Assembly (NCBI GenBank): GCA_054600435.1
Contig: BAAIJX010000011.1
Coordinates: forward strand, 434,001 to 498,000
DNA: 64,000 nucleotides
Origin: Neophaeotheca triangularis
Lineage: Eukaryota
Direction of reading: 5' to 3'
Positions 28,178 through 60,708 of the stretch are shown in pieces (position 1 is the stretch's first letter; each line of letters begins with the position of its first letter). The notes below the pieces were generated by a model that saw only the letters and a program-made list of their open reading frames with translations, did no database searches and had not been told where the DNA came from. Made by a program: the position numbers and the translations under genes.

Positions 28178-28903
28178 GGCTACGGCTCGTAGGAACAGTA
28201 GTCGAATTGCGAGATGGTAAAGGTTGAAATCGGACTGATATAGCTCGAGATTATTAAAGGAAGATTCGATTCTGTCGTCGTTGCCGGATCGGGAGTCATC
28301 GACGGTCGGGTGAATATTGGGTACTTCCGAGATGCCAAGATATACCGTCTTCTAAGATTGTACAGGTACCTACTTTACCTACTGTAGGTAGGTTATGTTA
28401 CAGGTACCTAGGTAGATTTTACAGGTAGCTGCGGCTTATCAGCGGGCGCCGGCAAGCTTCCCGGACCCGTCCGAGCTCCCGCCCCGTTTCCCCCAGCCAC
28501 CGAACGTGGCAGACTTGCCAGCCTCACAAACAGCTTCAGCACTCTGGCCAGCGTTCTAAATCTCTCACAGCAACGGACGATCATCACAACACACTCGCGT
28601 CTTGTTCCAAGCTTCTTCGCGCTGACGCGTGCCAGGTAAGTGCGATGGCTGGGTACCTGGACCATCTGGAGTTAGTAGTCAGGTCTTTTTCCATCTTTGG
28701 CGCACTTATGCTCCTTGCCTACCGACATCGTACTGCCCTGTACTCCACTTCCATTCCTCCTCACAAGCGAGCATCTCCATCCTCGTCTTCCTAAAACCCA
28801 AGCAAAAACATTTCCATCACTGCAGCATCCCTTCTACCCCTTCTCGAGAAACTCCATCACTTCGAACTCGAGGGGCATGCTATCCCCTATAGCTTTCCTG
28901 GCC

Positions 28904-30069
28904 ATGCGACCTTCGTTGCGCCTCGCGAGCTTAGCAACCATCGCCGCTCTAATATTCCCCGAGAAAGCGTTATCACAGACGTTCAGCGAGTGCAATCCCA
29001 CGACTGAGTCCGGATGTCAGCCAAACCCAGCGCTTGGCTCATCCTTTTCCACTGACTTTAGATCTGGCCCTTCCGATCAATTCACTGGCACCGGAAACCC
29101 GACCTACGACTCCGATGGCGTTTCGTTCGTCGTCGCCCAACCAGGCGACGCTCCTACACTATCGTCCGAATGGTACATCATGTTCGGACGCTTAGAGGTC
29201 ACGATGAAGGCGGCACCGGGAGCAGGCATCGTCAGCTCTGCGGTCTTGCTCTCCGACACATTGGATGAGATTGACTGGGAATGGCTTGGAGCGCAAAACG
29301 ATGAAGTTCAAAGCAATTTCTTTGGACAGGGTCAAACAACAAGCTACGATCGGGCTGCGGTACACTCAATCGGCGACACACAAGGCAATTTCCACACCTA
29401 CACAATCGACTGGACCGAGAACCAGATCGTGTGGCAGATTGACGGGGAAACAGTCCGAGTGCTTGCCGCAGACGCTGCTCAAGGACAGTACCCGCAAAGC
29501 CCCTGCCAAGTCAGAATCGGTGCATGGAGTGGTGGTGACCCTAACAATGCTCAAGGTACCATCGATTGGGCCCAGGGACCAACGGACTTCTCTGCCGGTC
29601 CTTTCACCATGGTGGTCCAGTCTGTGTCAGTGACTGACTATTCGACGGGCTCGCAATATGCCTATGGCGACCAGAGCGGCAAGTGGACCTCGATCATGTC
29701 CACTGGCGGGAGGGTCAATGGCAACGCCGACGGTTCCCATATTGACGCCGATGCACCCGAGATTACATCAACGACCTCAGGAAATCAGCCAGGCGGTTGG
29801 GGTCCTCCATCCACCTTCAGCAGCGCCGTCGTCACGAACACTAATTACCCCGGCCTTCCATCTGGGTGGGTTGTCAACAGTGATGGCAAAGTCCGTCCAC
29901 CCAGTGCGGCCCCTGTGAGTAAGCACCATATCCCTTATTCCTAAGCGTCCGTGCACTTTATTGTTGAACGATTGCTAACATGCTCTCTTCAGTCGACGTC
30001 CCAGCCCGCCTCGTCTACCTTATCGCCGGCTCCGTCAGCCTCGGGATTCTGCTCGGATGCAGCATATGA
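28904..30069 (+). CDS. Crh-family GH16, short GPI-anchored isoform from the alternative donor at 29919; exons 28904-29918 and 29993-30069 (363 aa)
   Basis: Donor GTAAGC at 29919 spliced to the same acceptor gives ...PPSAAPVIDVPARLVYLIAGSVSLGILLGCSI*, a small-residue omega region plus hydrophobic tail. Confidence 0.7.
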
Positions 30070-30460
30070 AGTCCAGACGCAGTTCAATGAGCAAGGATTC
30101 TTGACTACGGTCACAGCACCTGCAGGCATTTCCACCGGCTTCGATAACCGCGGCTTTCCAACGACCAGATACCCCTCAAATTGTGCGACGAAGAATTACC
30201 CATTCCAAGTGGGAGCGGTTCTGGGACAGGGCAACGAACAAGACGCTCAAACGTCCACTGGAGAGCAAGGCTCTGGTAATGGAGTGCTCACGGTCACTGC
30301 CGCCTCTTCTGAAGGGACAGAGACGCCTTCTCAGAGCGATGGGAGTCAGACTGAAGAAACTGAAGGGTCGCAATCCGAAGGTAGTGTGGCTGGATTGCGG
30401 TGGGAAGCGACGGTCTTCTCTTTGATACTAGCGATAGTGCTCGCGTTGGGAATTGCATAG
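28904..30460 (+). CDS. Crh-family GH16 chitin/glucan transglycosylase, GPI-anchored; long isoform with exons 28904-29914 and 29993-30460 (492 aa)
   Basis: Signal peptide followed by QTFSECNP; YIMFGR, GIVSS, catalytic DEIDWE, FHTYTIDWT, YPQSP. Donor GTGAGT at 29915, branch GCTAAC at 29974, acceptor AG at 29991-29992. Hydrophobic C-terminal tail TVFSLILAIVLALGIA. Probable 5'UTR intron donor GTAAGT at 28636. Confidence 0.88.
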
Positions 30461-30975
30461 CGAATGGCGTCTCTGCCGGACCAAGTGCTGGTGTGCTGGC
30501 ATGTACAGACTGGGCATTCGCATTCGCATTTGAAGGCAGAGAGAGGCTTTGGGGTCAAACGTGGGTGGGATTGGGTAACGAATGAATTACGATGCGCTTA
30601 CGAACTGGTGGCCTTGTCACATTGGACATAAGTACTATGAAGTAGGTAGTACCTGACAAAGCTGATACGATATCTTATACCAGTTTACTACAATACATAT
30701 AAGTCACCTTATTTATAGCCCGTGATTAGGAGACAGCAGATTAATCACGTGCTCGTTCTGGAGAACCTTTTACTAAACGCTTCCCCACAGACGGGTCCAG
30801 GTACATACGAATGGAGCTAGAGCCAGTAGTAGTAGTGCAAGATGGGGTAAGGTACTTGTCATAGGCTCCGATTAAACCGGTGGAAGCCGCGTTGATGGTG
30901 TTATTGTCGTGTTGTCTTGAAAAGTCTCTGACGGACCATAGCTAACTTACAGCGCCCGACGCTTCTGGCTGTAGG

Positions 30976-30983: not shown

Positions 30984-31310
30984 TCACGTAAAGACCGAGC
31001 CTGAGCCTGTGTGCCAATAATGCATTGCATGGCTCTTTCCAATCCATAAACTCTCCCCCAGCCTAGACCCGATCCTCCATACAGTACTTAACGTACCGCA
31101 AGACAAGGCTGAGCAGGTAAGCAACATGCTCTGGTGTCGGGTGAGATCCAGAGTGGTCCATGGTGAAGCTGTCAATGCAGCGGTAGCTCAGTTCCTTGCC
31201 GGAGGCCTGTATTCTGACGGCGTCGTACAGCCAGCCCGATCACCGCCTCCAGAGTCTCATCCTAACAACGTCCGAACGACCAATTGATCCATCCCGGCCT
31301 TGATACAATC

Positions 31311-34300
31311 ATGGCGGACAACAGCAATGGCAATGGCAAGCTCGACGGAGCCAGCGGTAGTGGACCGCATAACAAGCTCCTCGAGCAGATTATCAGAACT
31401 CCTCAGCGCCAGCCTTCCCCCCAACCCACTCACTTGTCGGTGCCGGGGTCGAAAATACCCAAAGTCCTCCACGAGTCTGGCTCAGGCTACGTGGCGCCCA
31501 AGTTCGAGGGCAAGGAGAAGCAAATGGACGAGGTCATGGATTCCGTGGAAGAGAAAGGCTTCATTCCGCCCGAGTTTGTAGAGCAAGAGACGAAGTGGTT
31601 CTACGAGGAGCTTGGCATCGACGACATGTACTTCAGCACGGAGAGTGTGGATGCGATTGTCAGCAACATACACTCGCTGTGGGCAGCCAAGGTCGCGGCT
31701 TATGCAAGAGATGATAAGCAGCTGGAGATTAGGTTGGACAAGGAGGCTGCGGACCATGCGCTGTACATTGACACGAGCAAGCCAGGTGTGTCGACCCCCG
31801 ATGGTCCAAAGTATGAGGCCAGGCTAGAGAGCAAGTACCTCGACGGCAGCAGAGGAGCCAACAGCTACCGCGTCGAGACTTTCAGGTCGAGTAGCAAGTT
31901 GCCAGGCGACACGGAGCAGCAGTTGAGGTGCTACTTCGTCTACCAGTCGATCTTCAAGAACAGCAAGCCGGCTGCTGACGAGACGCGGGTGGAGGAGCTG
32001 GCCGATGTACGCTTCATGCAGAAGGCCACCAAGAACACTCTCGAAATCTACCAGCAGACGATGGACAAGGCCGTCAGCAGGACAGGGCCAGTCATCGAGC
32101 TTTTCGATATCGAAGGTACCCGAGAGAAGCGAGTGATTGTTGGTTTCAAGCAAGGGTCCGCACTTGGTCTGTTCACTGCGCTGAGTGATCTCTACCACTA
32201 CTACGGTCTTACGAGCTCCAGGAAGTACGTTGAGCAGTTCTCAAACGGCATCTCAATCATGTCCATTTACCTCAAGCCGGCGTTCGGGTCTTCAAACAAA
32301 TACCCTCCGATCGAGGCGAGCATCCACCAAGTCGTCAAGGAGCTCTCTCTGCTCTATTGTATCCCGCAGAACCGATTGCAGTCGCATTTCAGCCAGGGGA
32401 GGCTCTCACTCCAGGAGGCCATCTACGCGCATTGCGTCTGGGTGTTCGTGCAGCAATTCCTCAACAGATTGGGCACTGAGTATACGACGCTTCAGTCAAT
32501 GCTTGACACGAGCAACAACGCCCACGCAGAGCTGCTCTCGAAGCTGAAGAAACGCCTGAGGAACGAGACCTTCACAGCCGACTACATCCTCGAAATCATC
32601 AACCAGTACCCGGACTTGATTCGCCCACTTTATCTGTCATTCGCCACGACTCATTATGTTCAAACTCGCGGCGAGCAAGACAACTTCCTGCCCACCCTCT
32701 CTTACCTCCGTCTCAAGGTCGAGCGTGTCATGACCGATGAGGAGCTTGGCGACTTAATATCACAGACTGCCGTGAACGAGCATCACGAGCTGGTCATGTC
32801 CGCTTTCCGCACCTTCAATAAGGCCATCGTCAAGACCAACTTTTACACGCCCACCAAGGTTGCTTTGTCGTTCCGTCTCAACCCGAGCTTCCTGCCTGAA
32901 GAGGAGTATCCGCAACCACTGTACGGCATGTTCCTGGTCATCAGCTCCGAGTTCCGGGGTTTCCATCTTCGATTCAGGGATATTGCACGCGGCGGTATCC
33001 GCATCGTGAAGTCAAGGAGTAAGGAGGCGTACGCTATCAACGCTCGCAGCCTTTTCGACGAGAACTACAACCTTGCGAATACGCAGCAAAGAAAAAACAA
33101 GGACATCCCAGAGGGCGGCAGCAAGGGTGTGATATTACTTGACGTTCAACACCAGGACAAAGCCACGGTGGCTTTTGAGAAGTACATTGACAGTATCATG
33201 GACCTGCTCTTGCCGCCGACTAGCCCTGGCATCAAAGATCCAATTGTCGACCTTGACAACAAAGAAGAGATTCTCTTCATGGGTCCGGATGAGAATACTG
33301 CCGATCTCGTCGACTGGGCTACTGAGCATGCAAGAGCAAGAGGTGCGCCGTGGTGGAAATCGTTCTTCACGGGCAAGTCACCCAAGCTTGGTGGTATCCC
33401 CCACGATCACTATGGCATGACCACCCTCAGCGTGAGGGAATACGTCCTTGGCATCTACAGGAAACTCGAGCTCGACGAAACCCAAGTGAGCAAATTGCAG
33501 ACTGGCGGTCCGGACGGCGATCTTGGAAGCAACGAAATCCTGCTTGGTAGGGAGAAGTACTGCGCCATCGTTGACGGTAGCGGCGTGCTCGTTGACCCGC
33601 AAGGCCTTGATCGTGCAGAGTTGCTCAGGTTGGCGAAGGAACGCAAGATGGTCTCGAACTACGACGCTTCAAAGATCTCCAAAGAAGGCTACCTTGTCCT
33701 CGTCGACCAAACCAACATCACGCTGCCTTCTGGCGAAGTGGTGCACAACGGCACAACCTTCCGCAATACCTTCCATCTACGAGGCAAGGAACAGTACGAG
33801 ATGTTTGTCCCTTGCGGAGGCCGGCCGGAAAGTATCGACTTCTCATCGGCGTCGAAGCTCATCAGCAATGGCAAGGCAATTGTGCCGTACATCGTCGAGG
33901 GCGCCAACTTGTTCATTACGCAAGAAGCCAAGCTGCGTCTTGAAAAGGCAGGCTGCATCGTGTTCAAAGACGCCTCTGCCAACAAGGGTGGCGTGACCTC
34001 CTCGTCTCTCGAGGTGCTGGCCTCTCTATCCTTCGACGACGACGGCTTCATAGAGAACATGTGCATCAAGCCCGACGGTACGGTGCCGGACTTCTACAAG
34101 TCTTACGTCAAGGAAGTCCAAGGTATTATTCAGAACAATGCCCGCTTGGAATTCGAAGCAATCTGGCGTGAGAACCAGGAGACTGGCATCTCGCGCAGTG
34201 TGCTCTCCGATCGTCTCTCCATGGCTATCACGAAGATGGACGAGGAGCTGCAAGGTACTGGCCTCTGGGATAACGTTGAGCTGCGCAACAGCGTCCTCGG

Positions 34301-34556
34301 GGATGCCCTGCCAAAGATGCTGCTTCAGGAGATCGGGCTTGAGAAGATCCTTCAAAGGGTGAGTGCTCGATTGCAAGGTGAACTAGAGGGACTGTGAGTA
34401 ACTAACCGCGTGGTTTAGGTGCCCGACAACTACCTCCGTGCCATTTTTGGCTCTTTCTTGGCCAGTCGCTTCATCTACTCGATGGGCATATCAGCCTCAC
34501 CGGTTTCCTTTTACGCTTTCATGAACCAGCGTATGGCCGCGGCACAGAAGGCATGA
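31311..34556 (+). CDS. GDH2: NAD-specific glutamate dehydrogenase (large fungal type); exons 31311-34358 and 34419-34556
   Basis: Motifs RQPSPQPTHL, SGYVAPKFEGK, FHLRFRDIARGGIRIV, KNKDIPEGGSKG, GPDENTA, QTGGPDGDLGSNE, EGANLF, DASANKGGVTSSS. Intron GTGAGT...CTAAC...TTAG gives QR-VPDNYLRAIFGSFLASRFIY. Confidence 0.96.
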
Positions 34557-50312: not shown

Positions 50313-51642
<1,330 letters not shown>

Positions 51643-59792: not shown

Positions 59793-60708
59793 TTATTTGG
59801 TCGAACGAGCGATCAACCACTGGAGCACCGCGTCGAGATTGGTCTCTTCCTTGGCGCTGATACCGTAGCAGCTGACTTCTCGGTGTGTCACAGATTTCAG
59901 ATTGAGAGCGTCGATGAGTTCATCGACTGTCAAGTGGCCGTGAAGGTCGGATTTGTTGCCCAACACCAGGAGCGGGATCCCTTCCATTGCAGGCTTCTCC
60001 AGAAGAATGTGCAGTTCCTCCTTGGCGACAGGAAGGGCCTCCTTGTCGGCGGAGTCGACGATGAATCTGGGAGGAGCGTGAGTGAGACATTAGCGAAAGG
60101 AGATGCAAGCGATTGACATACACAATCGCGTTTACGCCTCTGCAGTAACGCTCCCACATTGACCGGAATCTGGGCTGGCCTCCGAGATCCCAGCTACCTC
60201 CTGTCAGCGGTCTGCCAAAGGGGTTCGCGCTGCCCGAGGATGGACCGGCCTTACCATTTCAGCGTAACATGGCCTTTCTGGACGCGCTTCATGTTGAAGC
60301 CCACGGTAGGTATTGAGCTGACAGGATTATCAACGACTTGTCTGATGGAGCAATATCGTCCGGTGGCTGGTGCAAAGCCGCGACCACTTACTCGATTGTG
60401 AATTCACCGCCCTTCGCGAAGATCATCAGCGCTATGCGAAAGTGCAAACGGGCAGGACGCCACTCACCGCGAGCACTCTTAGCAGAGAAGTCTTGCCTGC
60501 GTTCTGGAGTCCGATCATGGTGATGTCCATCTCGGTGGCCCTGCATGGCGCTGGACGTTAGCGGCCAAGTTATGAAGGCTGCAAGACGAGATAGTCTCGT
60601 CGGACCGTGGGCGAATAGATGTATCAACGACGAGAGAAGAGCAGGACTTGGCCCATACCAGAAGAGGCTGAGGAGCCAATCATAGATGCGTCTGAAAATG
60701 CCAGCCAT
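59793..60708 (-). CDS. ARL8: Arf-like small GTPase Arl8; exons 60708-60659, 60540-60468, 60411-60392, 60317-60255, 60193-60122 and 60066-59793
   Basis: Five canonical introns give [35 protein letters not shown]...[10 protein letters not shown]...[21 protein letters not shown]...GNKSD...[13 protein letters not shown]. Confidence 0.95.

Follow-up and report, generated by a model that had tools for sequence, protein, structure and literature searches.

We analyzed a gene for a predicted Crh-type GH16 cell wall enzyme in a 64,000-nucleotide (nt) stretch of Neophaeotheca triangularis DNA (NCBI GenBank assembly GCA_054600435.1, contig BAAIJX010000011.1, positions 434,001 to 498,000 of the forward strand), which we call the window and in which all positions below are numbered from the first letter. 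In this gene, two splice donors lie 4 nt apart and share a single acceptor, such that the first 77 nt of exon 2 can be read in two frames: one (frame A) continues into a long protein and the other (frame B) into a short one, and both proteins end in a hydrophobic stretch. The best reading of these data, and one that we consider probable, is a real and conserved two-frame splice switch between two anchored-type forms of a Crh wall enzyme. Both frames are conserved among relatives under mutual codon constraint, and each of the two junctions is seen in intron-free contigs of relatives. N. triangularis itself probably makes both forms.

Two donors and one acceptor in a Crh-type gene

The features of the gene are as follows.

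28877..29914, + strand: exon 1, with 346 codons when counted from the first ATG, ending in phase 0 at ...PPSAAP
29264..29281, + strand: catalytic motif DEIDWE of GH16 Crh enzymes, residues 130-135, aligning with DEVDWE of 6ibu
29897..29914, + strand: PPSAAP, a small-residue stretch and the candidate omega region (a putative role) of a glycosylphosphatidylinositol (GPI) signal in the short form
29915..29992, + strand: intron, 78 nt from donor 1 and 74 nt from donor 2, with one acceptor AG at 29991-29992
29915..29920, + strand: donor 1, GTGAGT, phase 0, leading to frame A and the long form; 6/6 match to GTRAGT
29919..29924, + strand: donor 2, GTAAGC, phase 1, leading to frame B and the short form; 5/6 match to GTRAGT
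29974-29979, + strand: branch-point-like GCTAAC, read from the sequence
29993..30069, + strand: dual-coding segment, the first 77 nt of exon 2; Ser/Thr/Pro linker in frame A, hydrophobic tail in frame B
30065..30169, + strand: YD-repeat-like module of the long form, two Y/F-D/N-x-x-G-F-x-T-T hairpins (alignment A2)
30386..30460, + strand: hydrophobic C-terminal end of the long form with its stop, TAG 30458-30460; candidate second GPI signal

Exon 1 encodes a signal-peptide-like N-terminus (by eye), a GH16 domain and a conserved end reading ...YPGLPSGW..GKV.PPSAAP. The domain matched PF00722 (GH16) over residues 72-232 (E 3.4e-47; 160.6 bits, cut-off 22). The closest solved structure was the A. 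fumigatus "Probable glycosidase crf1" (6ibu/6ibw; E 1.2e-72), and the next structure matches after Crf1 were bacterial glucanases (beta-glucanase) at E ~1e-13 (1.5e-13). On the strength of these matches, the gene product is predicted to be a Crh-type GH16 chitin-glucan transglycosylase. The N-terminus and the C-termini of the predicted proteins are hydrophobic, which makes them a candidate signal peptide and candidate GPI signals, respectively.

The sequence that follows ...PPSAAP, GTGAGTAAGC, holds both donor hexamers. Spliced from donor 1, frame A is open for 155 codons from 29993 to the TAG at 30458-30460, and the resulting product of 501 amino acids (aa) runs from the Ser/Thr/Pro linker through the YD-repeat-like module and an acidic Ser/Thr-rich stretch to the hydrophobic end. 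Spliced from donor 2, the frame shifts by one base and the product (372 aa) closes with a 26-residue tail, made up of a short polar spacer and then ~19 hydrophobic residues, at the TGA at 30067-30069. Reading through the intron adds nine residues (VSKHHIPYS) before a stop, which is the 355-aa open reading frame (ORF) P0004 in the protein collection.

An original prediction for this locus had described two donors 4 nt apart, a GCTAAC branch-point-like site and a single acceptor, and every coordinate agrees with the sequence; the ending VSKHHIPYS that it gave for intron retention agrees both with the sequence and with P0004. Its protein lengths of 492, 363 and 346 aa for the donor-1, donor-2 and intron-retaining products hold when counted from the second in-frame ATG, at 28904. 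Annotated orthologs use the first ATG, at 28877 in the window, and from there the lengths are instead 501, 372 and 355 aa.

Conservation of the arrangement in relatives

A search with the exon-1 protein returned 1733 proteins at an E value of 1e-30 or better, with the best 120 of 1733 listed. The closest named relative among the matches listed was Vermiconidia calcicola (67% identity; Dothideomycetes, Mycosphaerellales), which fits the placement in Dothideomycetes given by the original prediction; the arrangement also extends to Leotiomycetes. Annotated short orthologs of ~365-390 aa carry a frame-B-like tail (Oleoguttula, Recurvomyces, Saxophila, Patellaria and Westerdykella), and annotated long orthologs of ~465-510 aa carry a frame-A-like linker and module (Dothistroma, Fulvia, Polychaeton and Glonium). 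In Hortaea werneckii, both forms (386 and 495 aa) are annotated inside one 90% cluster, in different assemblies. An Elasticomyces cluster is likewise annotated at 388 and 504 aa, and a Cenococcum protein of 376 aa shares one 90% cluster with a Glonium protein of 495 aa.

Other annotations touch on the same gene family. Biscogniauxia and Camillea (Xylariales, Sordariomycetes; P0370 and P0393-P0395) have annotated long forms with a related module. Deposited long models from Friedmanniomyces (P0014, P0017) and Elasticomyces (P0007) have junctions other than that of donor 1, lying after ...SGK or joining PPSAAPV far downstream, and these may be either artifacts or real. Past the end of the exon, unspliced ORFs called on contigs continue with PVSK, PVSE or similar, which is the tandem donor in translation. 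The deposited models P0035 (Cercospora zeae-maydis), P0096 (Corynespora) and P0441 (Friedmanniomyces) translate the intron as well (PVSK...), and one of these three ends in an intron-encoded hydrophobic stretch. In several unspliced ORF calls, P0030, P0038 and P0427 among them, the intron shares the frame of the short tail, so that retaining it would still yield a hydrophobic end.

To follow the tandem donor itself, we scanned metagenome contigs using an alignment of the last 105 exon-1 residues as the query, which yielded 80 loci, 59 of them unique. An in-phase GTnnGT was kept in 51 of the 59 unique loci, in the forms GTGAGTAAG, GTCAGTAAG, GTGAGTGAG, GTACGTAAG and others, and 49 of these 51 loci could be evaluated. 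All 49 had one acceptor, a frame B with 21-32 codons to its stop, and a frame A that was open far past the overlap; the pattern that the original prediction had proposed to look for in orthologs, a tandem donor with both frames open, is therefore kept in 49/49 evaluable unique tandem loci. A YD-like motif was present in 47 of the 49, and the remaining two have a simple Ser/Thr-rich stalk that leads to a hydrophobic end. Introns in related loci measured 54-87 nt with the same layout. Acceptors were assigned on the basis of frame A for L019, L022 and L073, and by hand, in analogy with L074, for L069.

The eight unique loci without the tandem fell into three that were cut by the contig end, three with a single phase-1 donor, and two with no intron. 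Where a single phase-1 donor is left (L017, L021 and L023), the short tail is kept and the long frame is gone. Where the intron is missing (L072 and L079), exon 1 runs directly into the short tail, and L079 is the base-exact donor-2 spliced version of its relative L073. The short form of Extremus antarcticus is intronless, too.

Loci of the GTACGTAAG group belong to Leotiomycetes (Hyaloscypha, Sclerotinia, Botrytis, Oculimacula and others), and the arrangement therefore predates the split between Dothideomycetes and Leotiomycetes. Across 48 unique loci, donor 1 matched GTRAGT at 6/6 positions in 31, at 5/6 in 16 and at 4/6 in 1, and donor 2 matched at 5/6 or better in 44.

The tandem-donor motif by itself is no more than chance would give: GTRAGTRAG was counted 3 times in the window, where 1.64 occurrences were expected, and a count of 3 was reached in 27 of 100 shuffles. 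Its conservation together with both reading frames does exceed chance. Since the motif is within chance, and since a Ser-rich linker that uses TCN codons will, even in the absence of selection, read as hydrophobic residues when the frame is moved back by one base, the case rests on the comparison with relatives. The two other GTRAGTRAG sites in the window, at 51300-51308 and 60078-60086 (+ strand), both read GTGAGTGAG.

Selection on both reading frames

The codon tests covered 43 unique overlap sequences, which are related to one another. Among frame-A Ser codons, the ratio of TCN to AGY was 318:2 in the overlap, compared with 993:451 in exon 1 and 305:119 in downstream frame A. Frame B limits the choice of frame-A Ser codons, because an AGY codon would appear there as a stop or as a polar residue. 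When frame A was recoded synonymously, frame B was open in 50% of trials per locus, and the observed hydrophobicity was reached in 1.65%. Synonymous recoding of frame B left frame A open in 47% of trials per locus, versus 43/43 observed. The third base of frame-B Leu, Val, Ile and Phe codons was C in 75% and G in 3% (417 codons), whereas the corresponding values in exon 1 were 50% and 15% (2243 codons). The position of the frame-B stop is also kept, with tails of 21-32 codons that are exactly 26 codons long in 18 of the 43 sequences.

Using these 18 loci with 26-codon tails, we calculated divergence at codon positions 1, 2 and 3. The values were 0.24, 0.35 and 0.48 in the overlap (frame-A codon positions), 0.27, 0.25 and 0.55 in a conserved exon-1 stretch, and 0.29, 0.30 and 0.63 in the module. 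The first positions of the linker are thus conserved like those of the catalytic domain and its third positions are damped, and the module evolves as ordinary translated sequence. At donor 1, base +3 was a purine in 30 of 43 loci versus 33% expected from 868 Val codons, an excess that fits a donor function atop the coding of Val.

Taken together, these patterns support the view that both frames are under selection in the overlap, where each appears to limit the codon choice of the other. The original prediction had proposed that the same DNA is selected both as a linker and as a hydrophobic anchor-type tail, and this proposal is supported by the conservation of the arrangement, the mutual codon limits, the co-loss of donor 1 and the long frame, and the junctions found in relatives. 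The synonymous constraint that it had proposed to test for over the overlap was likewise seen, in the 318:2 Ser codon ratio, in both recoding nulls and in the damped third positions.

Junctions seen in relatives

As junction evidence in relatives, we compared intron-free contigs (1.7-2.9 kb) with an intron-bearing genomic twin in the same 90% cluster. A donor-1 junction was found in the Fulvia fulva cluster (P0420 and P0421, versus the genomic P0422, which reads PVSK and has a 20-codon in-frame intron), in Sphaerulina (P0424, on 3 contigs) and in Cenococcum/Glonium (P0403 and P0404); the annotated long form of Oculimacula yallundae also has it. A donor-2 junction was found in Cercospora (P0428 versus P0427), in a Pleosporales-like fungus (P0101, on 5 contigs, versus P0126) and in Leotiomycetes (P0165, on 21 contigs, versus P0219; P0398 versus P0399; and P0210 versus the intron-retaining P0400). 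An RNA origin of these contigs is supported by P0398, from which an upstream intron is gone as well.

For CLAFUR5_09569 ("putative extracellular glycosidase", GH16_18), supplementary tables of PMC11694984 give three transcript isoforms and three protein isoforms in each of the two C. fulvum isolates, and neither the Pfam domain nor the signal peptide changes; in its main text, the same paper makes no mention of GH16, GPI, glycosidase, crf1, cell wall or alternative 5' splice sites (A5SS). For Sclerotinia, the wall proteome lists, in the portion of the report drawn on here (PMC6638348), another Crh gene, SS1G_04497, and not the ortholog SS1G_10043; no proteome record of the gene studied here turned up.

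Contigs matching the N. triangularis gene itself (99-100% identical) occur in three RNA-type libraries (X1-X3) from two studies, which carry the labels marine and air metagenome. In all three runs, coverage includes the 3' part of exon 2 past the short-form stop.

Protein ends and the long-form module

We called a protein end hydrophobic if it held a 12-residue window with a mean hydropathy of at least 1.6. Such a window was present in 43/43 frame-B tails and in 34/36 complete frame-A ends, and in 0% of internal control windows. The two frame-A ends without it were L009 and L064. In L009/L010, which are the same sequence on two contigs, frame A is closed by a stop immediately ahead of the hydrophobic end (...GGRVRVW, followed by the stop and LTACSALLAALMVASCVV), so that a long form there would be without an anchor-type tail.

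The short tail consists of the conserved P-P-S-A-A-P, an eight-residue spacer and then a hydrophobic run, and the final six residues of exon 1 were PPSAAP, PASSAA, PPSSAP or near variants in 43/43 unique loci. A small-residue stretch followed by a spacer and a hydrophobic run is the textbook layout of a GPI signal. From their hydrophobicity and small-residue motifs, we infer that both tails are GPI signals.

The module of the long form had a weak match to Pfam RHS_repeat (E 0.034). Its profile also matched bacterial YD/Rhs proteins at E 1e-6 to 1e-4 (P0362, P0372, P0379 and P0391), and one JGI source names the relative P0071 a "YD repeat-containing protein". A structure model of exon 2 has four strands at residues 25-59 and a helix at 132-154, at a mean predicted local distance difference test (pLDDT) score of 58.9, which is low overall confidence. 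A search with the exon-2 protein against longer proteins gave no homolog at E 1e-6, and an exon-2 profile search returned mostly stand-alone ORF calls of 80-160 aa along with few full-length proteins. Outside the gene, an open frame of 1043 codons lies ~0.8 kb to its 3' side, at 31266-34397 (+ strand).

Weighing the alternatives

Several observations count against a switch between the two forms. No read or contig runs over the junction of the N. triangularis gene: the 5 RNA-library contig pieces cover 29405-29890 and 30211-30489, with none at 29891-30210 and no joints, and these pieces say nothing about junction choice in this organism. Among the contigs of relatives, both junctions were not found in any one species, and the Fulvia cluster yielded just the donor-1 junction and the Cercospora cluster just that of donor 2. 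The intron-free contigs from Logan, ENA and JGI are presumed to derive from RNA on account of their length and their intron-bearing twins, and CLAFUR5_09569 is tied to the Fulvia ortholog by product name only. Donor 1 departs from consensus at +3 or +4 (GTCAGT, GTTAGT or GTACGT) in 16 of the 48 unique loci. The loci used in the codon tests are related, and P values overstate how independent they are; effect sizes are unaffected. Finally, the fully spliced long form of one Leotiomycete (P0181) joins a phase-0 donor 90 nt upstream of donor 1 to the same acceptor. That donor, ACG|GTAACT or GTAAGC, occurs in L034, L042 and L070 only, and the splice skips 30 residues holding the conserved PSGW...PASSAA stretch. 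Donor 1 is therefore not the sole route to a long form in every lineage.

The clustering of junctions could mean that the choice of donor is fixed, with each lineage always using one donor, the other frame being a functionless passenger, and no switch taking place within an organism. Contigs do show one junction type per cluster (donor 1 in Fulvia, Sphaerulina and Cenococcum/Glonium; donor 2 in Cercospora, the Pleosporales-like fungus and Leotiomycetes), with rare variants dropped in assembly. An unused frame decays, however, as seen from the loss of the long frame where donor 1 is gone, and yet both frames are intact in 49/49 evaluable tandem loci, Dothideomycetes-like and Leotiomycetes-like, with codon constraint in each. 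If CLAFUR5_09569 is the ortholog, its 3 protein isoforms in both C. fulvum isolates argue in the same direction, and we regard a fixed choice as unlikely. We think it very unlikely that only the short form matters in N. triangularis and that the long frame is a relic or rare splicing noise. In its favor, several lineages (L079, L072 and Extremus antarcticus) have the donor-2 junction fixed through loss of the intron, no intronless donor-1 form was seen, and the long frame of L009/L010 stops just short of its hydrophobic end. Against it stand the divergence pattern of translated sequence in the module (0.29, 0.30 and 0.63), a frame A that is open in 43/43 overlaps versus 47% expected, and long-form contigs from one Leotiomycete and from the clusters of Fulvia, Sphaerulina and Cenococcum/Glonium; the frame A of the window is itself complete, with module and hydrophobic end.

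The opposite possibility is that the long form alone is real, with donor 2 a by-product of GTRAGT and the frame-B tail a side effect of a Ser linker written in TCN codons. Every GTRAGT does contain a GT at +5, a TCN codon always becomes Phe, Leu, Ile or Val if the frame is set back by one base, and the motif by itself is within chance in the window. The near-exclusive use of TCN (318:2) is itself anomalous, though, and the stop of frame B is maintained in position (21-32 codons, with 26 in 18/43). Loci with only the short tail, donor-2 junctions in many intron-free contigs, and the intronless loci all contradict this explanation, which we find exceedingly improbable. P0181, with its phase-0 donor 90 nt before donor 1 linked to the same acceptor, raises the further question of whether the long form of N. 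triangularis comes from another donor. A phase-0 GT with a GTRAGT match of at least 5/6 within 150 nt before donor 1 was absent from the window and present in just 6 of the 48 unique loci, which leaves donor 1 as the only evident long-form route in the window. With the donor-1 junction also carried by the Fulvia, Sphaerulina and Cenococcum/Glonium contigs and by the Oculimacula annotation, a different donor is highly improbable here.

Proposed mechanism and significance

Under the two-frame splice switch that we favor, use of donor 2 (29919) would shift the frame by one base and place a 26-residue, GPI-signal-like C-terminus right after PPSAAP, giving a compact 372-aa enzyme. Use of donor 1 (29915) would keep the frame, so that the same 77 nt would be read as a Ser-rich linker leading into the YD-like module, the acidic Ser/Thr-rich stretch and the second hydrophobic end (501 aa). 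Both C-terminal ends would then be cleaved and replaced by GPI, and the choice of donor may set the distance of the catalytic domain from the membrane or the mode in which it is tied into the wall. The two readings of the shared segment are compatible because Ser TCN codons pair with hydrophobic xTC codons.

A more far-reaching proposal is that an ancient, regulated switch was in place before Dothideomycetes and Leotiomycetes separated, toggling between a compact membrane-near form and an extended form with a YD-repeat-like wall-binding module, in which the Ser-TCN/hydrophobic-xTC relation holds the 77 nt under two-frame purifying selection. We are evenly divided on this proposal. If true, fungi would have their first described case of a dual-coding alternative-splice event with deep conservation, and the case would offer a natural way to approach the placement of GPI enzymes in the wall.

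Fungi rarely show conserved alternative splicing that changes proteins, and the cases that can be interpreted clearly are few. The Crh gene appears to yield two anchored forms of a chitin-glucan cross-linker by way of a splice change that could not be smaller. The relation between Ser TCN codons and hydrophobic codons offers a simple general rule by which a glycosylated linker and a membrane-anchor signal may share DNA, and the switch makes the role of anchor context in wall versus membrane placement directly testable. Because annotations are split between short and long forms, counts of GPI proteins and of carbohydrate-active enzyme (CAZyme) architectures are inconsistent in these fungi.

Comparison with known systems

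In a literature search, we found no description of this two-frame Crh splice switch. It combines known kinds of event, namely delta-4 tandem donors and dual-coding exons, of which INK4a/ARF is an example. In animals, alternative splicing of NCAM and acetylcholinesterase picks the C-terminal exon reading that has a GPI signal; unlike these genes, which choose between separate GPI and non-GPI exons, the Crh gene uses one exon in two frames. In fungi, alternative splicing yields cryptic C-terminal signals of the type 1 peroxisomal targeting signal (PTS1).

SKI7/HBS1 is another conserved fungal alternative-splice event, as far as the portion of the report drawn on here extends (PMC3597508). Like the PTS1 and SKI7/HBS1 events, the Crh switch consists of conserved splice variants that alter the C-terminus and hence the fate of the protein. 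Those events, going by the same portion of the SKI7/HBS1 report, add or remove a signal, whereas both Crh isoforms end in the same kind of candidate signal and differ in what lies between enzyme and anchor.

Within the enzyme family, the part of PMC2721682 used here reports the A. fumigatus crf1 variants Crf1, Crf2, Asp f 9 and Asp f 16, which resemble the present case as C-terminal variants of a GPI-anchored Crh enzyme. According to that part, Crf2 lacks residues 328-389 through an in-frame deletion at which splice sites cannot be recognized, and the frameshifted Asp f 16 is called doubtful; it describes neither a tandem donor nor a dual-coding exon. We considered variation of the Crf2 type as an explanation and rejected it, as an in-frame deletion without splice sites, going by the same part of the paper, is a distinct phenomenon.

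Human dual-coding exons that arise from alternative splicing have been catalogued (10.64898/2026.05.28.727796; PMC13160074). From the portions of these sources drawn on here, they share with the Crh exon the reading of one exon in two frames, in separate isoforms, with selection on both. The Crh case differs in being a fungal gene with a 77-nt overlap, in which a glycosylatable linker is set against a hydrophobic anchor-type tail.

The closest parallel to the donor arrangement is the mammalian delta-4 tandem 5' splice site (A5E-delta-4), in which, according to the sections of PMC2423196 used here, GTs lie 4 nt apart by way of positions +5 and +6 of GTRAGT and the choice of donor shifts the frame. 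In coding sequence, these mammalian sites are mostly predicted to give premature stops or targets of nonsense-mediated decay (NMD) (PMC2423196, same sections). In the Crh gene, by contrast, both outcomes are complete predicted proteins with matching candidate C-terminal signals, and the arrangement is conserved across fungal classes.

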